Part shown: positions 89-11,057 of the stretch, piece after piece
How positions within the stretch are numbered: position 1 is the stretch's first letter
Layout: each line of letters starts with the position of its first letter
Origin: a virus
UHGV virus genome: UHGV-0152719
DNA length: 11,057 nucleotides
Direction: 5' to 3' (one strand)
Notes under the pieces: model-generated
Told to the model about the DNA's origin: nothing
The model's input: the letters and a program-made list of their open reading frames with translations, nothing else
The model's database searches: none
Made by a program: the position numbers and the translations under genes

Positions 89-110
89 GCAATACACACT
101 GCAATACACG
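89..110. repeat. Two tandem copies of GCAATACAC(A/G) motif (left-end partner of the 10865-10918 repeats)
   Basis: gcaatacacac at 89-99 and gcaatacacg at 101-110; same motif and orientation as the three copies at 10865-10918. Confidence 0.5.
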
Positions 111-1019
111 ATTATTTATAAGATGAGCGGCATCCGTCATAAAGCTGGTGGATGCTTTTTCTATGCATATATGCACAGTTTTAGTGGGCGTTAATGTCGA
201 TATAGGGATCCCCATATCGAGATTGGATACCTGGCTTTTTTCCGGTTAACCTTTAATCAGGCTGGTGGGCTTTACCTGTTTTGTATGAGCGGTCATCATG
301 ACCATGCCATAACAAAAACCCCATATTCGTGGGTTTTCTGTGTTGTGGCTATTCTGCCGTTGCCGTGCTGGTGGATATTTCCGGTATGTGGCTCACCATA
401 TCGGCATCAGGCCCACCAGCGTGAAGCGTTTTTCATTTTTCGCGGGTAAGCCCCAAAATCTGGGTGTTACTCTTACTACCCAAACTACGGGTAGTTTCCG
501 TAGTTTCTGGTCGAGTTGCAGATCTGCAACTCACCCACCAGCTAACCCATTTTTGGGCCGTCGGGAATATCAACCAGTTACTGCCAGTGATCTGGATGTT
601 CTGCAGTCTGGCTGGTGGCTGGACGCTGATTTTTTGCGTACCTGTATCGGTTTCGTATCCGGTGGATGTTCTGCGTACTTTTCAGAGGCGGATTTCCGCC
701 CACGCCATTCTGGACCAGTTGAAGGGGCCGAATACATCACCGGATTTAGGGGATGTTCCCGGCCTCCTCAATTTGAGGATTGTGGAAGAATCAATGGGTT
801 AGTCTTACTGTCCCTCATTTCCTGCATTGCAGGTTTTCGAAATAATCAATGGGTTAGGCCATCGTGCAATTTTGCACTTTGCCAGCCAGCGCAATGTTGC
901 GTTATCGGGAATATCAGCACGTTACCGGCTTTCGTCATGTTAAACACTGGCCAGGCATCGCCATTCTTATCAATAAAATCACCAGGCTCAAAATTGAGCT
1001 TTGCTTTAATCTCAGCAAG

Positions 1020-1304
1020 TTACCGCCGTAACCGTTCCGGCTTCTTCCACTGGTAAGTTTTTTTCTCGCTCTCCTGATACATCGCCACACGTCGACGGTA
1101 TGCCAGCAACTCTAATACCCTGGTTCGTATGTCGCGCATATCCACGCCGTTAAGATCGATACCGTCACAGCGCATCACCTCAGCCACCACACGCGCGTAA
1201 TTTTCAGCGGTGACGGTATCAGGCTGCATGGCCTCCTGTGTGCCAGCCTGCTGGCTGATTCCGGTAACGCGGCGGATTAATCCCAGTAGTTCGGCTTCTG
1301 TCAT
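1020..1304 (-). CDS. Hypothetical protein (94 aa), last gene of the packaging operon
   Basis: ORF directly downstream of the Nu1-like gene on the same strand; ATG at 1304; no recognisable family; weak Shine-Dalgarno. Confidence 0.45.
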   Translation of the reverse strand: MTEAELLGLIRRVTGISQQAGTQEAMQPDTVTAENYARVVAEVMRCDGIDLNGVDMRDIRTRVLELLAYRRRVAMYQESEKKTYQWKKPERLRR

Positions 1305-1315
1305 AGTGCGCTACG

Positions 1316-1858
1316 TTACTTGTCTTTATCCGGCTGAAACTTATCAGGCACATTTCCGGTAGTTTCCATCAGATAATCGGACAGTATTCGCGGGATGTTT
1401 TCATCAAGTTTTGTGCATGCGTTACAGGCTCTGACAACTTCCTTTTTAAGTCCATCCAGCATAGCGGGGGTAATCTGTGGGAAGCGCCTTTGCATGGTAA
1501 GCGGCAAACTGTCCATGATTGAAGAAATCTGACTCGCCAGTTTTGAAAGCACATATATACAAAATTCCGTACTAATAACGTCGCCGCGTTCGCGCTCGTT
1601 TTTAAGCTCCTGCGCCTCCGCCTGCGCTGTCAGCAATCTGATCCTGACTCGCAAAAGTTCATCATTATCAATCTCGCCTTTGTCGTCTGTAATCTGGTTA
1701 ATTGCATTGCTAACCCGATTGTCTATTACGCTGGCAACATCATAAAACGCCTCGCGGCCTTTACGTTCAACGGGAGTCACTCCCCACTTGTCGAACGCTG
1801 TCGCACTTACACGGCAGCTTTGCGCCATGTTTTTTTTGTTCATCAGGTACGATTTCAT
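1316..1858 (-). CDS. terS: Terminase small subunit, lambda Nu1-like
   Basis: C-terminal two thirds (LTAQAEAQELKNERERGDVISTEFCIYVLSKLASQISSIMDSLPLTMQRRFP...IPRILSDYL) closely parallels lambda gpNu1 (LTRAQADAQELKNARDSAEVVETAFCTFVLSRIAGEIASILDGLPLSVQRRFP...IPGLLSEYI); N-terminus (MNKK...FDKWGV...EAFYDVASVI) resembles the Nu1 winged-HTH more loosely. Start uncertain: GTG 1870, ATG 1858 (GGGGA SD-like upstream, chosen), ATG 1843 (aligns with Nu1 MEVNKK). Confidence 0.8.
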   Translation of the reverse strand: MKSYLMNKKNMAQSCRVSATAFDKWGVTPVERKGREAFYDVASVIDNRVSNAINQITDDKGEIDNDELLRVRIRLLTAQAEAQELKNERERGDVISTEFCIYVLSKLASQISSIMDSLPLTMQRRFPQITPAMLDGLKKEVVRACNACTKLDENIPRILSDYLMETTGNVPDKFQPDKDK

Positions 1859-1968
1859 CAATATCCCCACTTAAGTAATGTTTCAGGTTGGTGTGTTGGT
1901 GTTATCTTTCCCTTTTTATTCATAGAGATAGAGCGAAAAACAAAACCACCACCAGCACCCGAAAAAGG

Positions 1969-2012
1969 CTCATAAATAGCGAAAACCCGCGCGCCTTCCG
2001 CCCCGTAGCCTG
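1969..2012 (-). other. Lambda-like cos site (cosN-equivalent plus adjacent conserved flank), upstream of terS
   Basis: Minus strand reads caggctacg-gggcggaaggcg-cgcgggttttcgctatttatga; lambda cos as recalled is caggttacg-gggcggcgacct-cgcgggttttcgctatttatga. 22 contiguous nt identical downstream of cosN, left half of the 12-nt cosN identical, right half differs at 6 positions. Position (about 150 bp upstream of terS start) mirrors the lambda cos-Nu1 arrangement. Confidence 0.6.
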
Positions 2013-2059
2013 CCGGATCGCCGGAAAGGACCCGCCAGCCAGAACGGGCCCTAATTTCA

Positions 2060-2443
2060 TCAACCAATCAACTTATAGCGACCATCCCGTGCATTGCGAC
2101 GTACACGCTCAATCTTGAGGCATAGCGCCGCATCTGGCTTTTTTGGGACAGGTACGCGGCAATATTCAGAAGATCGAGGAATATTGTTTATCCAGTCGAT
2201 CACTTCACTTAAATACCAGGCCTTACGCCCTTCCGTAACCTGTACGCGTTCGGGGAACTCTCCGCGAGCCTCAAGGTTTAGCAATGTGCGACGGCTAAGG
2301 GTAGTAAGTTCCATCACCTGATTCATATCAACAAGGCGTTCACTTAAACGCATTTTGTCAGCAATAGCCTTTAATTCCTCTACTGCTGGATCCGGATACA
2401 TCATTTCGGCAATTGGCTTAAGGTCATTGTAATGATTCTGCAT
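2060..2443 (-). CDS. AlpA-family (excisionase-like) helix-turn-helix DNA-binding protein, 127 aa
   Basis: Motif LTTLSRRTLLNLEARGEFPERVQVTEGRKAWYLSEVIDWI matches the AlpA/phage-excisionase HTH pattern (G-FP ... W..SEV..WI); ATG at 2443 preceded by AAGGGGGA Shine-Dalgarno. Confidence 0.6.
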   Translation of the reverse strand: MQNHYNDLKPIAEMMYPDPAVEELKAIADKMRLSERLVDMNQVMELTTLSRRTLLNLEARGEFPERVQVTEGRKAWYLSEVIDWINNIPRSSEYCRVPVPKKPDAALCLKIERVRRNARDGRYKLIG

Positions 2444-2454
2444 TGTATCCCCCT

Positions 2455-2796
2455 TTACACACGAGCCAGCGGCTGAACAGAAATACCTGAGCCAACAAAC
2501 GCGGCAACCTTTGCCGACAGTTCTTTTACAGACTCAGGCCAGTTCAGAGCATCAACATTTAAAACGCCTGTCTTATAAACCTGTGCCTGTGTTTTTTTCG
2601 CTGTGTCGATTTGTACAGCGGAAACATAAACCGCTTTACCTACGCTCGAACCATCCCATACCACCAGTGCACCTGTTGCATCTTCCTGCATCAGTGGCGT
2701 AAATGCAGGAATTACCCCTTTATTAGCTGAAAATATCCCCAGCGTAGTCACCAGTGCTTCAGTGCCAGCCATGAGTTCAGTGTAATGAGTAGCCAT
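2455..2796 (-). CDS. Head decoration protein, lambda gpD-like
   Basis: 113 aa; TPLMQEDATGALVVWDGSSVGKAV and NWPESVKELSAKVAAFVGSGISV parallel lambda gpD [24 protein letters not shown] and [33 protein letters not shown] Shine-Dalgarno before ATG at 2796. Confidence 0.8.
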   Translation of the reverse strand: MATHYTELMAGTEALVTTLGIFSANKGVIPAFTPLMQEDATGALVVWDGSSVGKAVYVSAVQIDTAKKTQAQVYKTGVLNVDALNWPESVKELSAKVAAFVGSGISVQPLARV

Positions 2797-2805
2797 TGCT
2801 CCCCC

Positions 2806-3852
2806 TTAGCCAATGCGAACGGTAACAAAACGATTGATGCGGGCCGGTATTGGCTGTGGTGCTGAATGTGTCTGCACATATTCAATAGCCGGATCACCAG
2901 GCACAATATAGTTTTTCGGTGCAAGTTCGGCTTTAGTCAGCCCCATTCGGATTAGCTCCGGATCCTGAATACCGCCATAGGCGACAATCCCCTGAAGAGC
3001 CGTATTGCCAAGCACCATCAAATCAGGATCAAGGAAATGTTTTTCAGTTCCGTCCTCGTCGGTATAACGCCCGCTGTATACAACAATCGCAACATCGCCC
3101 ATATACCCTTTAAAACTCACCGAATCACCAAGGTCTTTAAGAGCCGTTTCCAGTTCGGAATTAGAACCACGACGGGTATCCAGAGCCTCTTTTATCGCTC
3201 TGAATGAACGGTATTTCTTCCATACATTACCGCCCATAATGATGATATTAGTGACGCCCTCACTAAATTCTGCGTAGCTCTCAATATCATCATTTGGATC
3301 AAAAGTTTCTTTATCCTTACCTGACCACTCAGCACCGCCAGACTGAGTGATGATATTTTGTGGTTTAATATTCCAGTCCAGCTCATAACGTTCAATACCA
3401 TCGCCCTCAATGATATTTTTCCCCGTTGTGATTGCCTGAACGGCAAGCCATTCAATACGTGCACGAATAGCTTTAGCCTGATTTACAATCGCCTGTTTAA
3501 CTTTAATATTACGCGCTCCAAAAGCATTGTATTGCTCAGGTGATACACCAGCAGGGCGCACAGCTAACTTATTTGGATCAATGCTGCTTTTCGGCTTCAT
3601 ATAGCCTGGACGAATTGTTTTTGATTCGTACCCTTCGTCACGTGAAACTTTACTACCCACCATAGGAGAACAAAACGCTGCAATTGGGATATTTGGATCG
3701 TCGATTGTATCAAGAATAATATCGCGCGATTCAAACATTACCGAGCGAGTGAAAAACAAACTGGTAAACAACGCATTTAATTTTTTTTGCACATCTTCAG
3801 CATTAGCCACCTGCACAAGCTGTGTAGGCGAATATAAATCAACCATACTCAT
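2806..3852 (-). CDS. Major capsid protein, lambda gpE family
   Basis: Strong similarity to lambda gpE: NIITQSGGAEWSGKDKETFDPNDDIESYA ... RSFRAIKEALDTRRGSNSELETALKDLGDSVSFKGYMGDVAIVVYSGRY vs lambda NITQSGGTEWSKRDKSTYDPTDDIEAYA ... RSFKAVKEKLDTRRGSNSELETAVKDLGKAVSYKGMYGDVAIVVYSGQY. The ORF extends to 3933, but the MSMVDLY start (3852) matches the gpE N-terminus MSMYTT; the alternative ATG at 3846 has better SD spacing. Confidence 0.85.
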   Translation of the reverse strand: MSMVDLYSPTQLVQVANAEDVQKKLNALFTSLFFTRSVMFESRDIILDTIDDPNIPIAAFCSPMVGSKVSRDEGYESKTIRPGYMKPKSSIDPNKLAVRPAGVSPEQYNAFGARNIKVKQAIVNQAKAIRARIEWLAVQAITTGKNIIEGDGIERYELDWNIKPQNIITQSGGAEWSGKDKETFDPNDDIESYAEFSEGVTNIIIMGGNVWKKYRSFRAIKEALDTRRGSNSELETALKDLGDSVSFKGYMGDVAIVVYSGRYTDEDGTEKHFLDPDLMVLGNTALQGIVAYGGIQDPELIRMGLTKAELAPKNYIVPGDPAIEYVQTHSAPQPIPARINRFVTVRIG

Positions 3853-4017
3853 CCTCTTTACATTCATTACAAATAATTGTGAATATATTCTATTACCGAT
3901 GTCTGCTATGCGAATACATGCAACCAAGTGCAATGTTGTATAAAATATGCCGTAACAACTTCAGTGCTGATAATTCGTGTTAATGTATTTACTTCCTTTG
4001 GTTGGGATTTATGTAGC

Positions 4018-4057
4018 ATGCCGGAAAATCTATTTTTTTCCGGCATCTTTTTGTTTG
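4018..4057 (+). terminator. Hairpin plus T-tract (intrinsic-terminator-like) in the ssb-capsid intergenic region
   Basis: atgccggaaaa / ttttccggcat inverted repeat (4018-4046) followed by ctttttgtttg; the U-tract is on the plus strand, so it would stop antisense or convergent transcription. Function uncertain. Confidence 0.4.
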
Positions 4058-4063
4058 CAGAAT

Positions 4064-4486
4064 TTAAAACGGTATATTATCGCCGTACGGATCATCATTC
4101 CCCGACTGTTGTTTTGCCCTGTTCAGTGCGTCAGTGGCCTGCCCCTGCTGGCCTTTTTTGCCGCCCGGTCGCGCCGTTCGCGCACTGATTACGCTGTCTG
4201 CGATAACCTGCCAGCCCCGCCGCGTTTCGCCGTTCTGGCCTGTCCACTGGCTTACCTGCATGTTACCCGCCACGCTCACCAGTTCGCCTTTGTGGTGTTT
4301 TGCCAGTGCGTCGGCCTGTCTGCCAAACGCCAGGACGGATAACCACATCGTCGCCGTTCCGTCATCTGCCTGGCTGCACGGCAGGGGAACCGCCATACTC
4401 GCCATCGCCATTTGTGTCCCTTTGCTGGTGGTCTTTAACTGCGGGTCAGCCACCAGCCGCCCGTAAGCCGCTATCTGTGCTGTCAT
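4064..4486 (-). CDS. ssb: Single-stranded DNA-binding protein (SSB-like OB fold with acidic C-terminal IPF tip)
   Basis: WLSVLAFGRQADALAKHHKGELVSVAGNMQVSQWTGQNGETRRGWQVIADSV parallels E. coli SSB [52 protein letters not shown]; Gly/Gln-rich linker; C-terminus DDPYGDNIPF resembles the SSB DDDIPF tail. Start ATG overlaps the upstream gene's stop (ATGA). Confidence 0.7.
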   Translation of the reverse strand: MTAQIAAYGRLVADPQLKTTSKGTQMAMASMAVPLPCSQADDGTATMWLSVLAFGRQADALAKHHKGELVSVAGNMQVSQWTGQNGETRRGWQVIADSVISARTARPGGKKGQQGQATDALNRAKQQSGNDDPYGDNIPF

Positions 4487-4740
4487 GCTGTCTGCTCTCC
4501 GGTTTTAACATTGATGGTTGTCACCTGTTCCGCTTCGGCAATCTCCCGTTCTGTCAGCGTGGCAAAGTTTGCAGCCGCCGTTGTCATGAATGCGCTTATC
4601 AGTTCTGGATGTGCTTTCGCGTATCCTTCCCCGGCGTTGCGATCTATTGCCTTAATCGCCACCCTTAGCCAGTGTTCAGCCATATCAAGGGCACGGTAAT
4701 GTGGCTTTATATGTTTGTTCAGTTTTCCTGATGTGTGCAT
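4483..4740 (-). CDS. Hypothetical protein (85 aa)
   Basis: ORF with GAGGGGG SD-like sequence upstream of ATG at 4740; stop overlaps ssb start (translational coupling); no family recognised. Confidence 0.5.
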   Translation of the reverse strand: MHTSGKLNKHIKPHYRALDMAEHWLRVAIKAIDRNAGEGYAKAHPELISAFMTTAAANFATLTEREIAEAEQVTTINVKTGEQTA

Positions 4741-4786
4741 TTTTATTTTTACCCCCTCGTTTAAAAAGTTTTGAAATGTGGTGCAC

Positions 4787-5014
4787 CTCCTCTACCTCTC
4801 TACCTAATCATCTTTCAGGTCAGTAATGGCGCGGCTTTCAGATGGGTAGAGGGCTTTCGGGGCCCTCTACCCATCCTCTACCCGCCCCTCACAAATGACC
4901 TTAATCATGGTGGAGGAGGTAGAGGGCTTTTATTTGCCTTCTACCTGGCCCTCTACCTGCTTATCATATTGAATAATATATATTTATTTTCTTTAGGTAG
5001 AGGAGGTAGAGGGC
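4787..5014. repeat. Iteron array with AT-rich core: putative origin of replication
   Basis: Ten copies of an 8-bp motif in both orientations: CCTCTACC at 4789, 4864, 4875, 4950; variants TCTCTACC 4797 and TTCTACC 4939; GGTAGAGG at 4845, 4918, 4996, 5006; three carry the longer form GGTAGAGGGCTTT. AT-rich stretch 4958-4995. Sits immediately 3' of the primase-helicase gene. Confidence 0.65.
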
Positions 5015-5026
5015 TTTTGTCTAAAA

Positions 5027-6781
5027 TTATAAAAACGCGTCGCAATCCTCTGTTGTTGTCACATTGGTTTGCGTAAGTCCTTTAACCCTGCGCGTTATAT
5101 ATTCACATCCGTAAACTTTCGCCGCTGGCTTCATGGCCTTGCTGAAATCAGCCACGTTTAGCGGCTTGCTTCTGCCTGCGTATGCCATAAACGCCAGATA
5201 GACGCGGTAAAGGCTGTTTCTGGTCGTGTACTTCACGGAATCGCCACCGCCACCCATCATCAGGCCGCGCGCTTCCTCCAGAAAATTCAGAAACTGGCAA
5301 AACTCAATAACCGGATCCGTCTGTTGCTTTATCGCCAGTGCTTCTTCACCGTCGCGCTGTTCAATCAACAAATGTCGCGCCTTTTCTGGATCAGCAAAGT
5401 TTGCCAGCAATCTGCGGATAATCACGGGGATTTCAGCCGCGACCTTCTCCGGTAAATCCTTGTCCTTTTCTGCCTCGCTAACGATATTGTCGAAGCGGAA
5501 AATTACGCGACGACGTGACACACCTCCGGCCCGTTCGGTGAATATCATCGGGTTATTGTTGGTAGCCAGCACCACCGCCCTGATTACCGCCGTAAAACGC
5601 TTTTCATATTTCGGGTTTATTTCCACGGGGTCGCCGCCCGTGATTTTCTTGATGCCCGTGCCTTCGCCTGTATATTTCGGCTGGTCAGCCAGGACGATAA
5701 GACGACTCCCGACAACCTGAGCACGCCCACCAGCATCATCAAGCGAAGTCATTTCAGCGCTTACCGTGTTCTGTTTCCCTGCCAGAAGGCTGGCTATGTG
5801 CGTGAATGTACTCTTTCCGCTCCCGCCGTCTCCGGTGGCCTCAATAAACATCTGCCAGTCGTACCGGTTCGCCATAATCATGTACAGCGCGGCACATATA
5901 CGCATCATCTTGCGTGGGTCTTTTCCGGCTGCGTGATCAAGCCATTTATGAAAGTTTGGCGCGTTGTCGCGGATGTTCTCCCCTGGTGCTGGTGGCGTGT
6001 ACTCAATGCCGTTGTGCGTGGTGATCCAGTTCTCCGGCGAGTGCGGGGAAAATTCCCCCGTTTTCAGATTAAGCACACCATTAGTGAACGGTAGCAAATC
6101 GCCAGACGGCTCGCCCATTGGTTCGGCAATAACTTTTAACGCTTCCACGGCGTTATTGATTGCGCGCTTGCTGAAAGTGGCCCTGTGCTCTGAATAGATC
6201 GCCACCATTTCGCGGCTAAGTTCCATTGTGCTGACCGGACACCATACCCCGCCGCGCCATACGTGAACGATTTCACTTTCAGGATGTACGCAAACGCCAT
6301 CAAAGCGATCGGCAAGCAACTGCGCGCGCTCACTGTCCGCCATCTGCGAAAGTTGCGCCTTTTGCTTTACCGGAAGCTCAATGACCAGACCATCAGAAAG
6401 ATTCTGGCGTTCACGGGCCAGATATTCGCGCCAGTTCTGCACCTCCTGGCCGTGCATACCCTCAGGATAAAAATTTGCATCCTGTACGCCTGCTGCCGCC
6501 AGCTTCTGACCAATCGCCTTTATCATTACAGGCGCAAGATATCCGGCCCTGTATATGCGTGCTGATTTTCGGCCTTCCGGCACAATTTGCAGATTATCCA
6601 GTTCGGATAGCTGCTGCTCCCCAAGCCACACAGGAGGCTCATTATCTCCGGCCATACGCGCATCATGTTCCTGCCATTGTTTCGCGTGTGCCCAGGCATC
6701 ACTACCCGCAAAAATAATGACTTCTGTTCCTTTGTGTTTTATGCCGCGTGACTGCTGTTTTACGTTCGGTGCCAGTTTCAT
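5027..6781 (-). CDS. Primase-helicase, phage/plasmid P4-alpha-like (Walker A GDGGSGKS)
   Basis: 584-aa ORF; Walker A motif TGDGGSGKST followed by helicase-like region; N-terminal primase-like portion; typical P4/PICI pri-rep size and position next to iterons; start ATG overlaps upstream gene stop. Confidence 0.85.
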   Translation of the reverse strand: MKLAPNVKQQSRGIKHKGTEVIIFAGSDAWAHAKQWQEHDARMAGDNEPPVWLGEQQLSELDNLQIVPEGRKSARIYRAGYLAPVMIKAIGQKLAAAGVQDANFYPEGMHGQEVQNWREYLARERQNLSDGLVIELPVKQKAQLSQMADSERAQLLADRFDGVCVHPESEIVHVWRGGVWCPVSTMELSREMVAIYSEHRATFSKRAINNAVEALKVIAEPMGEPSGDLLPFTNGVLNLKTGEFSPHSPENWITTHNGIEYTPPAPGENIRDNAPNFHKWLDHAAGKDPRKMMRICAALYMIMANRYDWQMFIEATGDGGSGKSTFTHIASLLAGKQNTVSAEMTSLDDAGGRAQVVGSRLIVLADQPKYTGEGTGIKKITGGDPVEINPKYEKRFTAVIRAVVLATNNNPMIFTERAGGVSRRRVIFRFDNIVSEAEKDKDLPEKVAAEIPVIIRRLLANFADPEKARHLLIEQRDGEEALAIKQQTDPVIEFCQFLNFLEEARGLMMGGGGDSVKYTTRNSLYRVYLAFMAYAGRSKPLNVADFSKAMKPAAKVYGCEYITRRVKGLTQTNVTTTEDCDAFL

Positions 6782-7077
6782 TTTTTACCTCTGAATCCGT
6801 TAATCATGGTTTTCATTTTCTGGATATTTCCCCACGCTTTTTCCCTGCTGATGGGCTTACTGCGGGGTGCGGCATATACCAGGGAAAAATCACGCCGGAA
6901 CTGATAAACAGGCATCACGCAGTCATAGCTATACCCCTCACGGCGGTAAGTGATGCGCCGTTCTGCCACGCCTTTAATCGTTACCGTGCCGCCGTATTTA
7001 TCGCGGTAAATATCGCCGTTCATAAATTCAGGACGAGCGGGGCCGCTGGCATTAACACCAGTATTTTTCATTCCCAT
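6778..7077 (-). CDS. Hypothetical protein (99 aa), translationally coupled to primase
   Basis: ORF whose stop overlaps the primase ATG (ATGA); no recognised family. Confidence 0.5.
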   Translation of the reverse strand: MGMKNTGVNASGPARPEFMNGDIYRDKYGGTVTIKGVAERRITYRREGYSYDCVMPVYQFRRDFSLVYAAPRSKPISREKAWGNIQKMKTMINGFRGKK

Positions 7078-7081
7078 ATAA

Positions 7082-7324
7082 TTAAATTCCGTTTGTGTGG
7101 TGTTTTAATTCGTGAATTTTTTCTAACGCTCTGTTTATCTTGCTGGTCGAAATATCCAGTAATTCAGAAATGGCAAAGTTCAGTCTTGCCGTTGACTCGT
7201 CACGCTCGCAATTTGTCAGCGATTCAAACCAGACGTTAATAATCTCACTTACGGCATTGTTGTAAGATATTGCGCTTTGTGTGAGTTCATTCAGTTCATG
7301 AATCACGCGCTCATTATTGTTCAT
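7082..7324 (-). CDS. Hypothetical protein (80 aa)
   Basis: ORF with GAGGGAGAG Shine-Dalgarno upstream of ATG at 7324; part of a tightly packed minus-strand operon. Confidence 0.5.
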   Translation of the reverse strand: MNNNERVIHELNELTQSAISYNNAVSEIINVWFESLTNCERDESTARLNFAISELLDISTSKINRALEKIHELKHHTNGI

Positions 7325-7505
7325 TGTATTGCTCTCCCTCCGCTATTAACCATGCCGACACATTGCCGGAAAGACGCGCCAGAAGACTGGAAATCGCGGA
7401 TATATCGGCATCCGTAAGTTTGTCAGGGTATACCTCAAGAAGGCGGCAAATGATTTCAACCTGCTGCGCTCTTTCCGCAATTTCGTTTAATGTAAACTCC
7501 TGCAT
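7314..7505 (-). CDS. Hypothetical protein (63 aa)
   Basis: ORF with AAGGGG SD about 9 nt upstream of ATG at 7505; overlaps the next gene by 11 nt. Confidence 0.45.
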   Translation of the reverse strand: MQEFTLNEIAERAQQVEIICRLLEVYPDKLTDADISAISSLLARLSGNVSAWLIAEGEQYNEQ

Positions 7506-7508
7506 TAA

Positions 7509-7691
7509 TTACACCCCTTTTAATTCATGTACTGCTGCAATAATTACATGTGATAAACCTGCTTTACCGGAATTACTGATTAGTGAATCAATCGCCGCTT
7601 GCATATTAACGGCCTTCACGTTCTGCGTTATTCCGATGGTGTAGCCGCGTTTATTAACTGCACGGGCAAATACGCGGAAGGTTTTAAGCAT
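7509..7691 (-). CDS. Hypothetical protein (60 aa)
   Basis: ATG at 7691 overlaps the stop of the upstream 65-aa gene (ATGCTTAA); operon context. Confidence 0.45.
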   Translation of the reverse strand: MLKTFRVFARAVNKRGYTIGITQNVKAVNMQAAIDSLISNSGKAGLSHVIIAAVHELKGV

Positions 7692-7881
7692 GACTCACTC
7701 CCTGGCGGATTTTTGCAGCGAATACAGCAACACAACCGGACGGGCAACGGCTACGCGCTTCGCGTTCCGTCCAGGCGGTTACGTGGATGATTTGAGATTC
7801 TCCGGCACTCAGTGCCAGAAAACGCCACACAAAGGCCGTTTGTGTGTGTACAAGGTGTGGTATATGATTTACAGCAACCAT
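7684..7881 (-). CDS. Hypothetical protein (65 aa), first gene of the minus-strand replication operon
   Basis: Corresponds to the C-terminal 65 codons of the 356-aa track ORF; internal ATG at 7881 is preceded by a canonical AGGAG SD (ctAGGAGccgttATG); the remaining upstream part of the long ORF is low-complexity and antisense to better-supported plus-strand genes. Confidence 0.5.
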   Translation of the reverse strand: MVAVNHIPHLVHTQTAFVWRFLALSAGESQIIHVTAWTEREARSRCPSGCVAVFAAKIRQGVSHA

Positions 7882-8071
7882 AACGGCTCCTAGTTTACGT
7901 TGTTGGTTAGACGCCCCGTATGTGTTCCCAGCACTGCGGGGCGTTGCTCTTTGTATTTCAACAATCCTTTCGGTGTGTTTCATGTTATGAGCACATGAAA
8001 CACACGTCAAGGCTTTTTGTATTTCTTTTTTTGTGTATACTGAAACACACCGATGATTAGGAGTTTCAGAA
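7882..8071. promoter_or_regulatory. Divergent promoter/operator region between the minus-strand replication operon and the plus-strand regulator genes
   Basis: Perfect 12-bp inverted repeat gtgtgtttcatg-(9 bp)-catgaaacacac at 7973-8005 plus a third half-site tgaaacacac at 8041-8050; minus-strand sigma70-like promoter TTGACG (8005-8010) -17 bp- TAACAT (7982-7987) overlapping the palindrome; plus-strand -10-like TATACT at 8036-8041; 8-bp stem hairpin acgccccg...cggggcgt (7911-7944) in the minus-strand leader. Confidence 0.5.
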
Positions 8072-8377
8072 ATGGCAACGGCTAACAAAAACGCAAAATC
8101 ACAACTGACAACTGTCAGAGTCCCACTAGATGTTATGCAAGGGATGGAATCCGTTAAGCTGGACGGTGAAAGCAATGCCGGATTTATCGTAACCGCCATG
8201 CGCGGAGAAATAGCCCGCCGCCAAGCAGAAGGCAGCGGAGAAAATCCCCTTGTGTCGTCACTGGATGCCCTGGCTAAGGTCGAACAAATCGGCATCAAAG
8301 CAGCCGAGGAGATCGGGCAACTCGTCACCGTCGCGCGTGAAGAACTCCAGCGACGCAAGGTCAAAGAGCATGAATAG
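8072..8377 (+). CDS. Putative ribbon-helix-helix-like DNA-binding protein (101 aa), candidate island regulator
   Basis: AGGAG SD 8 nt upstream of ATG; N-terminal TTVRVPLDVMQGMESVKLDGESNAGFIVTAMRGEIARRQ fits a beta-strand/helix/helix Arc/CopG-like pattern (inference only); divergent from the replication operon. Confidence 0.5.
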   Translation: MATANKNAKSQLTTVRVPLDVMQGMESVKLDGESNAGFIVTAMRGEIARRQAEGSGENPLVSSLDALAKVEQIGIKAAEEIGQLVTVAREELQRRKVKEHE

Positions 8378-8434
8378 CCAATATCAGCGCCATAGTTTGA
8401 GGAACGCAGGCGCATTGCTTTACAGGACAGCACC

Positions 8435-8614
8435 ATGAGCGACACAGAATCAACCAAAACACCATCACCAACTCGTAAGAGACGACGCAAAAATATAGCG
8501 CATGAACATGAATCAGAAAGATTCGCACCTTGTTCGTTTGCTCTTGAGAAATTCCTTAAAGAGCACAGGAAAAAGCTCTCGTTGCAAACCTTGGAACGAA
8601 CCAAATCTGACTGA
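8435..8614 (+). CDS. Hypothetical small basic protein (59 aa)
   Basis: Not in the supplied ORF track (below its apparent length cut-off); ATG at 8435 with AGGA-like SD upstream, in line with the preceding gene and followed by an intrinsic terminator; contains a KRRRK basic stretch. Confidence 0.4.
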   Translation: MSDTESTKTPSPTRKRRRKNIAHEHESERFAPCSFALEKFLKEHRKKLSLQTLERTKSD

Positions 8615-8670
8615 TCACATTGCCCACCAGCCGCAAATGTGGCATTGTTGGTGATGCTTTTGTTTTCCCT

Positions 8671-8700
8671 TGTTCCCACTGGCGACCCTTTTGCGGTCGC
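8671..8700 (+). terminator. Rho-independent terminator of the plus-strand two-gene unit
   Basis: ggcgacc-cttttgc-ggtcgcc stem-loop followed by tttgttttg. Confidence 0.6.
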
Positions 8701-8710
8701 CTTTGTTTTG

Positions 8711-9289
8711 TCACTGAATGCGGTTACCAAAGTAAAACTCAGGCTGATATTCACGTATCAGCCTTTTTTCTTCTTCCTCCAGCTCACGCTTTTTGCGCTT
8801 ACATGCCTGTAGCTCCCTCCCCTTCTCGCTGGCACTTATTTGATATTGCTCTTTACGGCGGGAAAAATCCTGTAATGCACCCCACGGGATACCATAAGCC
8901 CCCGTTTTTCTGATACCTGGTATCACATTTCTGAATACCCAGTTACTGAAACGATGAGCAAATGTGCCCGGCGTCGTTGCTTTGCGGCTGCGGGCTATTA
9001 GTTTGTAGAAACCTGACTCAGAGATAATTCTCATATTCTGATTTCCTCCTGGGGTGTAAGTTAAATTTACTCCCTTTTCATCATCATCAAGCATCTGCAA
9101 CGCCGTACGCGAATTGGTTAGTTCCAGCGCAGCACAAACATCTTTTGCAACAAACCACGGATCGCCGTTCAGATACACCACACGAACGTTCACACTATCA
9201 AAGCGCAGAACGACGAGATCACGAATATCGCAGAATTTTTTCACTGGACGAGCGTACCCCTTGCCCGTCACGGCAATATTTTTATTCAT
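8711..9289 (-). CDS. Bro-N domain protein (phage antirepressor-like), 192 aa
   Basis: N-terminal region VVLRFDSVNVRVVYLNGDPWFVAKDVCAALEL...LQMLDDDEKGV matches the Bro-N/antirepressor N-terminal domain pattern; C-terminal charged coiled-coil-like tail. Confidence 0.75.
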   Translation of the reverse strand: MNKNIAVTGKGYARPVKKFCDIRDLVVLRFDSVNVRVVYLNGDPWFVAKDVCAALELTNSRTALQMLDDDEKGVNLTYTPGGNQNMRIISESGFYKLIARSRKATTPGTFAHRFSNWVFRNVIPGIRKTGAYGIPWGALQDFSRRKEQYQISASEKGRELQACKRKKRELEEEEKRLIREYQPEFYFGNRIQ

Positions 9290-9307
9290 CGCGTTTTTAC
9301 CTTATAG

Positions 9308-9333
9308 ACAAAAAACCCCTCGTGATGAGGGGT
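9308..9333 (-). terminator. Hairpin with flanking A/T tracts (bidirectional terminator-like) between alpA and the Bro-N gene
   Basis: cccctc-gtgat-gagggg stem-loop (9316-9332) with acaaaaaa on one side (a T-tract on the minus strand) and tattattt on the other. Confidence 0.5.
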
Positions 9334-9345
9334 ATTATTTACTGG

Positions 9346-9603
9346 TTATTGCTGTTTTGTTTTTCCAGGTTTCCATCCAGGATGCCACTCACCACGGATC
9401 CATGCCTGAACCTCTGAAAGTCGATACCCTGCAGCACGTTCACCGATCTTGATACGTCGCGGGAATTTACCTGCCTGCTCCATTTTCCAGCGTGTTGAGT
9501 TTGCCAGCGTGGTAAGTGCTATGCACTCTTTTTCACGAATGAACCGATCAATGTCCTTCATTGTGCGCAAATCGTTTTCATCAACAAGAGAATAAATTGC
9601 CAT
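9346..9603 (-). CDS. alpA: AlpA-family transcriptional regulator / excisionase-like protein
   Basis: 85 aa with HTH IALTTLANSTRWKMEQAGKFPRRIKIGERAAGYRLSEVQAWI typical of AlpA (prophage CP4-57 regulatory protein family); AAGAGG SD; immediately downstream of the integrase. Confidence 0.8.
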   Translation of the reverse strand: MAIYSLVDENDLRTMKDIDRFIREKECIALTTLANSTRWKMEQAGKFPRRIKIGERAAGYRLSEVQAWIRGEWHPGWKPGKTKQQ

Positions 9604-9604
9604 A

Positions 9605-10846
9605 TCACACCACCTCTTTATTAAGCTCGATAACGTTGTTGTTAAATCCTGCTATCGTATTAAGGTAATTAACCCACATATTAAGCACCTCAAGTTTTTT
9701 CTTTATATGCCTGCTTTTATTGTAAACACCAGCAACCCCTTTCACTTTATGACCTAAAAGAAGTTCGACAATATAAGGATCCGCCCCCATATCATTAAGC
9801 GTAGTGGAAAATGTGCGCCTGAAATCATGTATGCACCACAAGCCATTAGTATCATGACCAAGACGCCTGCATATTCTGTTTGCAGCCCCTGTTATTGTCG
9901 CCCTTTGCAAAGCACAACCGACAACATAACCGCAATTTTTTGTTTCTGCGTAAAGATTAACGATCCATTGTTTTATTCCGTCAGGAACAGGCCTTACTAT
10001 AGCCTCCTTGTTTTTGCTGTGCTCTTTTGGGACTGTCCATACCCAGTTTTTTAAATCCCATTCGTCCCAGGTGGATAGCCTCGCCTCCTGCTGTCGGCAA
10101 CCAAACACCAGGCAGATAACCATTATTCTTCGGTTATATATTGATGACAGAGTTAGCAAATTATTACCGTAAGCATAAGACCATACATCAGCGGTTTCAT
10201 TGATATTAAGAACGCGATCCCTTATACCGGATGAGCGCCCGACATAACTTACGTTAATATCTCCAAAGGGATCGCACGCGATGTATTGCCTGACGCGACA
10301 AAAACGCAACGCCTGTTTGATATCAAGAAAAATTGCACCAGACATAACAGGCGCATTTTTTTTGATCCTGTCAAAGACGGTAAGCCATGTGTGTAATTTG
10401 CACTGTTCTATAGCCATATCACCGATATAGGGGAAGATATGCTTTTCAAATCGTTTTATTAAATATTCATGCTCTTTTCTGGCTGTTGTGGCGTGATTGT
10501 CGTACCAGTAAAACAGCGCATCCCTTACGGTCACTGGTTGCATAGTTTTTTCGGCAGCAAGTTTTATTTGCCTGCGGGGGTCCAGATTTTCAGCCAGCCA
10601 TTCACGGCACTGATCACGCATGCGCCTGGCCGTTGCAAGAGACATGTCAGGATAGCGACCAAGTGTAAGCCATACCGGAGGGGATTCCCTGCCACCAAGA
10701 CGATAGTAAAAAACAAAGCTGATCCCCCCAACCATGCTTACACGCACAGACAACCCGCGCCCATCCGCTATTGTTTTTTGTTTGTCCTGCCGTTTTCCGA
10801 CAAGACTCTTTAACAGTTTGTCACTGAGTTTGTTTTCAATAGCCAT
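9605..10846 (-). CDS. int: Tyrosine site-specific integrase, P4-type
   Basis: 413 aa; N-terminal P4-integrase-like arm-binding region (MAIENKLSDKLLKSL...GRGLSVRV); catalytic-domain motifs including HDFRRTFST and the GVAGVYNKS tyrosine region; GAGGG SD upstream. Confidence 0.9.
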   Translation of the reverse strand: MAIENKLSDKLLKSLVGKRQDKQKTIADGRGLSVRVSMVGGISFVFYYRLGGRESPPVWLTLGRYPDMSLATARRMRDQCREWLAENLDPRRQIKLAAEKTMQPVTVRDALFYWYDNHATTARKEHEYLIKRFEKHIFPYIGDMAIEQCKLHTWLTVFDRIKKNAPVMSGAIFLDIKQALRFCRVRQYIACDPFGDINVSYVGRSSGIRDRVLNINETADVWSYAYGNNLLTLSSIYNRRIMVICLVFGCRQQEARLSTWDEWDLKNWVWTVPKEHSKNKEAIVRPVPDGIKQWIVNLYAETKNCGYVVGCALQRATITGAANRICRRLGHDTNGLWCIHDFRRTFSTTLNDMGADPYIVELLLGHKVKGVAGVYNKSRHIKKKLEVLNMWVNYLNTIAGFNNNVIELNKEVV

Positions 10847-10864
10847 TAAAAGCCCTCAAGAGAT

Positions 10865-10918
10865 TTGCAATACACACCCACCCCGATCGCCAATTTGCAA
10901 TACACATTGCAATACACA
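10865..10918. repeat. Three direct copies of TTGCAATACACA motif upstream of int (partner of 89-110 repeats)
   Basis: ttgcaatacacac 10865-10877, ttgcaatacaca 10895-10906, ttgcaatacacaaa 10907-10920; same motif and orientation as the two copies at 89-110; candidate att-arm / recombination-directionality or int-promoter operator sites. Confidence 0.5.
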
Positions 10919-11057
10919 AAACCGCGAAAAACTGGAAAGGTGATGAACGGTCATCAAAAGCATGGAAAACGACATTCCAGACGCAGCAAGGGTTTCAGTG
11001 GAGTTGGCGAACGATGCGGGCAACTACGGTGAGATGATAGACATAAATCGCCTTCAC

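Follow-up and report, generated by a model that had tools for sequence, protein, structure and literature searches.

UHGV virus genome UHGV-0152719, the stretch of DNA shown above, is an entire metagenome scaffold of 11,057 bp (ENA ERZ28666412, scaffold_1203; hereafter the window), and we conclude, with a probability of roughly 0.85, that it holds one complete, apparently functional helper-embedded phage-inducible chromosomal island (HE-PICI) of the site group B:Phage_portal_2:241, that is, a satellite lodged within the portal gene of a lambdoid prophage. Such elements were described by Tommasini, Mageeney and Williams in 2023 (NAR Genom Bioinform lqad036; PMC10111431). The window carries the features that mark out Gram-negative phage-inducible chromosomal islands (PICIs): an int-alpA-pri/ori backbone, genes running in one direction, a length of about 10-15 kb, a cohesive-end (cos) site and no lysis or tail genes. 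A preliminary description of this DNA had already proposed the backbone (integrase, AlpA and a primase-helicase with adjacent iterons), each part of which was borne out by profile searches or by iteron shuffles, and likewise a gpE-like capsid protein, a gpD-like decoration protein, a Nu1-like small terminase (TerS) and a lambda-like cos, all of which hold up against Pfam, PHROG and a cos alignment. As that description had also stated, genes for the large terminase (TerL), portal, protease or scaffold, tail and lysis are absent, both from the list of open reading frames (ORFs) and from Pfam profile searches of the element; its view that the element depends on a lambdoid cos helper is supported, and for TerL, portal, protease/scaffold, tails and lysis such dependence must hold. 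What it missed is the main feature, namely the embedding in the portal gene of the presumed helper prophage, which was published in 2023 (PMC10111431).

Insertion in a lambdoid portal gene

The case for this embedding comes from relatives of the window's element. Twelve loci with this integrase (L001, L003-L008 and L013-L017) extend beyond the element on one or both sides, and in all twelve the flank is a lambdoid late operon around portal gene B. Seven of them are RefSeq loci (GPEC1031, LR-51 and five further complete genomes) in which the annotation shows half of a portal pseudogene on either side of the satellite, with the late operon's own Nu1, A and W on one flank and its C, D and E on the other; in GPEC1031 and LR-51, the embedding operon also has its own FI. 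The contigs L004-L008, whose integrase protein is identical to that of the window, show portal fragments or neighbouring late genes among their flanking gene calls. Indeed, the flanks of GPEC1031 and LR-51 rejoin with a 13-bp overlap onto the intact portal gene of phage YDC107_1, and excision in silico at an 8-bp repeat in GPEC1031 yields a portal protein of 533 aa; the YDC107_1 portal has 499 annotated residues, and across these the two proteins are 99.4% identical with no gap. On the Pfam Phage_portal_2 profile, the N-terminal portal fragment stops at position 242. The target of the integrase, on these alignments, is an 8-bp block, AAGGCGAT, near codon 241 of portal gene B of the lambda family. 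The satellite is co-oriented with the prophage late operon and splits B, which precise excision would restore.

Both copies of this block are present in the window, on the minus strand, at 7-14 (the end of the late zone) and 11047-11054 (the integrase end), and the few bases outside them, 1-6 and 11055-11057, are portal-gene sequence. With one identity block counted, the element is 11,040 bp long. Its arms match the published attL and attR of Eco10269.11.B_Phage_portal_2_241, with the same identity block (aaggcgat): the right, integrase-side arm is identical to the published attL, and the attR arm differs by one base over the stretch compared. The late-zone arm carries a doubled motif on the plus strand at 89-109, GCAATACAC-N3-GCAATACAC, published as tgTGTATTGCantgTGTATTGCa, and the integrase-side arm carries plus-strand motifs over 10867-10917, with a single GCAATACAC at 10867 and a doubled copy at 10897-10917. 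Exact copies of GCAATACAC number five in the window, every one of them inside the two attachment (att) arms. Measured from its nearest edge to the centre of the block, the doubled motif lies 78.5 bp away at the late-zone end (89-109) and 133.5 bp away at the integrase end (10897-10917); in HE-PICIs, the distances reported for a doubled TGTATTGC motif from the attP centre are 81+/-2 bp on the upstream side and 132+/-2 bp on the downstream side (PMC10111431), the slight offset depending on how the motif edge is defined. The limits of 89 and 10918 given in the preliminary description are therefore those of the two doubled motifs, and the true ends lie further out, at 7-14 and 11047-11054. The scaffold itself stops 6 and 3 bases beyond the identity blocks; because these terminal bases are portal-specific on both sides, its ends do not derive from the assembly of a circular (attP) form, and the break in the assembly probably arose at the border between the unique satellite and a prophage gene of which several copies or alleles exist.

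Could the element instead be the remnant of a decayed lambdoid prophage, its capsid, decoration and TerS genes left over from the prophage next door? Portal fragments, TerL and Nu1 do lie directly outside the element in the contexts read, which is what the preliminary description had named as the observation that would speak for decay. This part of its expectation stands, and the decay itself is not borne out: what lies outside is a late operon split by a satellite. Complete copies of Nu1, A, W, C, D, E and FI are already present in the surrounding prophage itself, and the element's shell and TerS copies are only 36-42% identical to those of the prophage and evolve under purifying selection, which speaks against their being debris of that prophage. 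The portal halves rejoin exactly at the 8-bp repeat to give an intact gene, and the element brings an integrase, AlpA, primase and origin of its own, with att sites that match published ones. In-silico excision and the comparison of paralogues have already refuted decay, to which we give next to no credence.

If the window instead holds an embedded satellite, has it moved recently? Of 5426 complete E. coli genomes, 65 carry the integrase and its arm, a unit at least 99% identical in 62 of these, and the carriers of this near-identical unit come from chickens, pigs, humans and food, with differing prophage backgrounds; near-identity across 62 genomes from such varied hosts argues for recent mobility. 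The unit adjoins a portal pseudogene in 11/11 full-length matches among those listed. The closest copy of the element, in contig L007, is 98% identical over 1008-11057 of the window, and the best copy in a complete genome is 95.5% identical over 93% of it. The 141-bp attB region is itself widespread: it is 99.3% conserved in gene B of phage lambda (J02459 3594-3734), a detail that we did not meet in the published accounts, and is also found in 434, HK630, DE3 and Stx1a phages, with 80 phage records covering at least 80% of it. Given this conservation in lambda gene B, an ordinary or laboratory lambda lysogen should be usable both as target and as helper. We also considered that the insertion might be immobile, locking the prophage through its split portal and acting as a gene-integrity switch or an anti-prophage block with no transfer at all. 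Many helpers look truncated and particles have not been recovered (PMC10111431), and the Bro-N gene is frameshifted in two of five additional loci (L013 11108-11685; L017 11111-11687), which would suit a locked element. However, such a lock is hard to reconcile with an integrase and arm at least 99% identical in those 62 genomes and their differing prophages, with functional modules that are all intact and under purifying selection, or with a 66-bp stretch of cos 100% identical to that of phages, a mark of recent exchange; we regard it as very unlikely.

Packaging and shell genes

The packaging region of the element appears to combine a cos cleavage site shared with phages and a recognition site of its own. 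The cosQ and cosN region (1970-2035, minus strand; cosQ GGGTCCT at 2027-2033, 12-nt cohesive end GGGCGGAAGGCG at 1992-2003) shows 100% identity, over its 66 bp, to the corresponding region in phage PhiR46_1 and in phage YDC107_1, the portal gene of which carries the attB; this suggests a recent exchange of cos with phages. This identity ends about 22 bases beyond cosN, and the ~110 bp from there to the terS start codon are unlike the lambda-type cosB of either phage. We term this satellite-specific stretch cosB* (1859-1969, minus strand); within it, an AT-rich stretch separates two conserved blocks, TGGTGGTGGTTTTGTT and CAACACACCAACC. It is unrelated to the helpers' lambda-type cosB and is conserved in 12/12 of the terS-bearing PICIs read. 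In the two relatives that have an identical integrase protein and no terS (L004 at 18732, L008 at 11992), cosB is of the lambda type in both, with an R3-like TTCCGTTCTTCTTC, and the cos sites of the embedding prophages are lambda-type in 10/10 read. From these comparisons, the private cosB is always accompanied, as far as alignments can tell, by the satellite's own Nu1-family TerS, and this pairing, set against the lambda-type cosB of the terS-less relatives, goes beyond the published accounts that we found; terS and cosB in HE-PICIs are not discussed in PMC10111431. Reverse-complemented, the core of the private cosB, GGTGGTGG, reads CCACCACCAC, and this sequence occurs in the cosB of cos1 in EcCICFT073, the model Gram-negative PICI. 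The cohesive end varies among near-identical satellites: most have GGGCGGCGACCT, the window and L008 have GGGCGGAAGGCG, and L004 has GGGCGTCAGGCG. The end of the satellite equals that of its embedding prophage in seven of nine pairs, too few for a conclusion. A second cos, as in EcCICFT073 and the O157 island, was searched for in the window and only one is present, as the terS and 94-aa genes are merely 11 bp apart.

The TerS gene (1316-1858, minus strand; Pfam Phage_Nu1 1e-23; PHROG 57 2e-50, full length) follows cosB* directly. Its product covers positions 9-192 of 199 of PHROG 57, is 36% identical to the Nu1 of the embedding prophage and finds its best phage match, at 47%, in gp1 of N15; over its C-terminal part (residues 85-166) it is 44% identical to the helper Nu1. 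The gene's ratio of non-synonymous to synonymous substitution rates (dN/dS) is 0.16-0.21. Might this TerS act in the manner of the Rpp proteins, pairing with the helper Nu1 as a hybrid DNA-binding unit that reads the satellite cosB and blocks that of the helper? The gene stands in the slot that RppA occupies in EcCICFT073, RppA, RppC and Nu1 share a winged helix-turn-helix (HTH) DNA-binding domain and Rpp pairs with the phage TerS (PMC6739421). The C-terminal part is just 44% identical to that of the helper Nu1, a level that speaks for such pairing. Indeed, the terminase subunits of lambda and phage 21 are more alike than TerS and Nu1 are here, yet are not interchangeable. Against an Rpp-like role, the protein is a full-length member of the Nu1 family with a conserved C-terminal part, the portion that contacts gpA in lambda; it shows no sequence similarity to RppA, and comparing its sequence with solved structures gave nothing meaningful, with no match to the lambda TerS or RppC chains. 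We hold an Rpp-like role to be doubtful. Nor was an Rpp protein found elsewhere, no ORF of the window being similar to RppA and the Rpp slot being taken by the Nu1-family terS. The 127-aa winged-HTH protein encoded just upstream of cos (2060-2443, minus strand; Pfam Phage_AlpA 1e-8; PHROG 2790 2e-48) was considered for the part and rejected, since it matches PDB 8c3t, of the AlpA family, at 8e-11 but does not match RppC, and BLAST shows no similarity between it and RppA.

On the other side of this gene lie the gpD-like head decoration gene (2455-2796, minus strand; Pfam HDPD 4e-15) and the gene for a full-length gpE-like major capsid protein of 346 aa (2806-3846, minus strand; Pfam Phage_cap_E 5e-41). 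The capsid protein is 42% identical to the helper's E from end to end, with a dN/dS of 0.025-0.24, and the decoration protein is 38% identical to the helper's D, with a dN/dS of at most 0.2; both paralogues are, judging by these ratios, under purifying selection. Among 50,697 phage records, the best match to the capsid is lambda E itself, at 42%, and no record exceeds 47% identity to either capsid or TerS. Do these genes supply a shell of the satellite's own? Such a role is putative, and its strongest form, a partly capsid-forming satellite that uses the portal and scaffold of the helper to build a gpE/gpD-like shell, perhaps below T=7 in size, has several points in its favour: both genes are full-length with a dN/dS of 0.025-0.24, they form a satellite-only lineage with no phage record above 42% identity, an 11-kb monomer is far too small for a lambda head, and capsid size is altered by homologues of capsid proteins in SaPIbov5 and, possibly, PmCI172 (PMC6092414). 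On the other hand, the element has no portal, protease or scaffold gene, and in EcCICFT073, where identity to the window's proteins is 55% for the capsid (c1499) and 54% for the decoration protein (c1500), deleting either gene changed transfer little, neither relieved interference with lambda, and the island is reportedly packaged in full-size capsids (PMC6092414). Moreover, four genome units amount to 44.2 kb, or 95% of the 46.7-kb genome of YDC107_1, and would fit a full lambda-type head, which makes the packaging of multimers in full-size heads plausible. Weighing these, we consider a shell of the satellite's own to be distinctly unlikely. The two paralogues are thus strongly conserved even though their counterparts made little difference in EcCICFT073, the one model examined by experiment.

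The course of events that we favour for the HE-PICI is drawn by analogy with the sister element 11capE, the HE-PICI model, and with EcCICFT073. Once the helper is induced, the composite of prophage and satellite would replicate, and read-through from the late promoter of the helper may express satellite genes. Int and AlpA would then excise the satellite, repairing portal gene B, and the satellite would go on to replicate from its own origin. Its TerS would bind the satellite cosB and recruit the helper's TerL (gpA), which would cut the shared cosN and fill heads with concatemers of satellite DNA; the portal on which these heads are built, and likewise the protease/scaffold, connectors and tails, would come from the helper. 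Two of these steps have experimental precedents in the models: excision after composite replication in 11capE (PMC10111431) and the Rpp-dependent recognition of a private cosB in EcCICFT073 (PMC6739421).

Several considerations weigh against this account. We infer the embedding of the window's own copy from its 6 + 3 flanking bases, the identity of its arms and the contigs with an identical integrase. The cohesive ends differ in two of the nine pairs, and packaging may thus at times rely on a helper other than the embedding prophage; with a C-terminal identity to Nu1 of only 44%, direct binding of TerS to the helper's gpA is not assured. Particles were not recovered even for 11capE (PMC10111431), and the homologues of the capsid and decoration genes made little difference in EcCICFT073 (PMC6092414). 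Finally, Rfam revealed no immunity RNA of the C4/isrK (P4) type in the window, the Bro zone included.

A bolder version of the same scheme would have the satellite TerS replace Nu1 entirely, so that only DNA with the private cosB is packaged, and would add a gpE/gpD shell of the satellite's own, possibly smaller, built on the portal that excision has repaired. We see this combination as an outside chance; if true, it would be a cos-type counterpart of the TerS strategy of Staphylococcus aureus pathogenicity islands (SaPIs), and one that makes shell proteins as well. In the literature that we found, no test of terS/cosB specificity, or of the role of the capsid paralogues, is reported for this lineage.

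Replication origin, gene layout and non-coding segments

Coding in the window is almost all on the minus strand, the sole plus-strand gene in the ORF list being that of a YlcI/YnfO-family protein (8072-8377; NCBIfam NF041551 2e-17), divergent from its neighbours. The integration module (9346-10846) comprises a tyrosine integrase with a P4-type arm-binding domain (9605-10846, minus strand; Pfam Arm-DNA-bind_3 4e-17, Phage_integrase 7e-14) and AlpA (9346-9603, minus strand; Pfam 5e-14), and is followed by the Bro zone, a gene for a Bro-N antirepressor-like protein (8711-9289, minus strand; Pfam Bro-N 5e-20; PHROG 2593 1e-85) that is bracketed by two-way terminator-like hairpins at 8741-8764 and 9315-9333. 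Beyond the YlcI/YnfO-family gene come four small early genes (7082-7881, minus strand) that match PHROGs of unknown function and include that of an Icd-like protein (7684-7881, minus strand; NCBIfam phage_ICD_like 1e-17), and then the gene for a DUF4222 protein (6778-7077, minus strand; Pfam). The gap of 7882-8071 between the icd-like and YlcI/YnfO-like genes contains an inverted repeat (I1, 7959-8019) with arms of 27 nt (7959-7985 and 7993-8019), which overlaps a promoter-like site at 8010-7982; together, these could be the early promoter and operator. In the window as a whole, sigma-70-like sites are rarer than expected (9 in the promoter scan, against a mean of 17 in shuffled sequence), a count that fits expression by read-through or dependent on an activator, but proves nothing.

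The replication genes begin with a P4-family primase-helicase (5027-6781, minus strand; Pfam D5_N 2e-16, DUF5906 4e-10 and Pox_D5), which scores 111.6 against a cutoff of 108.7 for TIGR01613, 'primase, P4 family'. Just downstream of this gene sits the replication origin (4789-5012), where 11 iterons of GGTAGAGG, in both orientations, are arranged around an AT-rich core. Allowing up to one mismatch, GGTAGAGG is matched 13 times in the window, 11 of these within the origin, and none of 200 shuffles of the window reached 13 matches. The origin of EcCICFT073 likewise adjoins pri (PMC6092414). A conserved 85-aa protein (4483-4740, minus strand) is encoded next to a single-stranded DNA-binding protein (SSB; 4064-4486, minus strand; Pfam SSB 6e-16; PHROG 1231), and the late zone, described above, closes with a conserved 94-aa protein (1020-1304, minus strand; PHROG 1561 2e-49), the gene for which has a dN/dS of 0.2-0.4.

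Between this last gene and the att arm lies a variable segment (271-1008, strand not assigned) with no annotated gene, which aligns as a mosaic to relatives. It contains degenerate direct repeats, of the families D1, D2 and D10, such as 538-581 with 882-925 and 765-802 with 820-857, and its 49 bp at 759-807 are ~90-94% identical to roi/antirepressor genes of Stx phages. A plus-strand ORF of 238 aa (340-1056) was tried as a gene and is treated as non-coding, since it has no Pfam or NCBIfam match and no gene is annotated at this position in the RefSeq relatives. Because a scan of the window found no tRNA gene, we do not take the element for a tRNA-site island. Rfam returned, at E up to 1, only two chance matches to microRNA models, both on hairpins of the origin.

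Comparison with known satellites

The class to which we assign the window is already published, and the window adds one more metagenomic copy to it. The HE-PICI integrase clade has 14 target sites in lambda-type late genes, three of which are in the portal gene, and its elements are divided into Integration, Bro, Replication and Late zones (PMC10111431). With the B:Phage_portal_2:241 group, the window shares the identity block, the spacing of the doubled motif, the target codon, a length of ~11 kb and all four zones; it differs in being metagenomic, in bearing the less common cohesive end GGGCGGAAGGCG and in its own version of 271-1008. 11capE, in contrast, sits in gene E and is without terS, whereas the element described here sits in B and has terS.

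EcCICFT073 (Fillol-Salom 2018 ISME J, PMC6092414; 2019 Mol Cell, PMC6739421) is built along the same lines, with the same gene order, including homologues of capsid (c1499) and decoration (c1500) genes (PMC6092414), and a lambda-type cosQ/cosN with a private cosB. Apart from the two shell proteins, identities to the window's proteins are 95% for the primase, 84% for the 85-aa protein, 74% for the last gene, 72% for DUF4222 and 69% for SSB. However, its integrase is only 40% identical, its site is chromosomal (roxA/phoQ), it has no Bro-N gene, RppA (c1503) takes the slot of terS, and there are two cos sites as against one in the window. At the same roxA/phoQ site, an O157 PICI (FDAARGOS_293, L012) repeats the order of the window's late module (capsid, decoration, small protein, cos, terS and a 93-aa gene), with a private cosB and a terS that is 85% identical to the window's in nucleotide sequence. 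This island differs in being chromosomal and in having an EcCICFT073-type integrase, a PerC gene, a second cos and, where the window has its P4-family primase, a RepA-type helicase. Two cos-like sites, opposite in orientation, are present both in EcCICFT073 (L011 32529/33339) and in the O157 island (L012 11696/10758), as published for cos1/cos2. The module of terS and private cosB is by no means confined to embedded satellites of this kind, being present in 772 of 5426 complete E. coli genomes.

These comparisons also bear on the proposal, made in the preliminary description, that the element is a new intermediate between PICIs and capsid-forming PICIs (cf-PICIs). The window shares with the latter its own major capsid protein and small terminase, together with helper-derived tails. 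Yet cf-PICIs are described as encoding all capsid-forming and packaging proteins, including portal, head-tail connector and adaptor, whereas the window encodes capsid, decoration and TerS only, and none of these three hallmarks was found among its ORFs. With the hallmarks of cf-PICIs absent, and the same late module present in EcCICFT073 and the O157 island, both classical E. coli PICIs, a claim to an intermediate class is not supported: the element falls within the published HE-PICI group. Satellite P4, in turn, has in common with the window a P4-family integrase with Arm-DNA-bind_3, an AlpA/Vis-type regulator, the C-terminal domain of a P4-family primase and an Icd-like gene. The hallmarks of P4 are Sid, Psu, Delta, a P2-type cos and a P2-like helper. 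In Pfam and PHROG profile searches, no ORF of the window matched the Sid, Psu or Delta families, its cos is of the lambda type, and the helper, too, is of a different type, lambdoid.

Seen across these systems, packaging specificity looks modular: one and the same slot holds a private cosB* paired with a terS of the satellite's own, a lambda-type cosB and no terS, or RppA accompanied by a cosB of its own.

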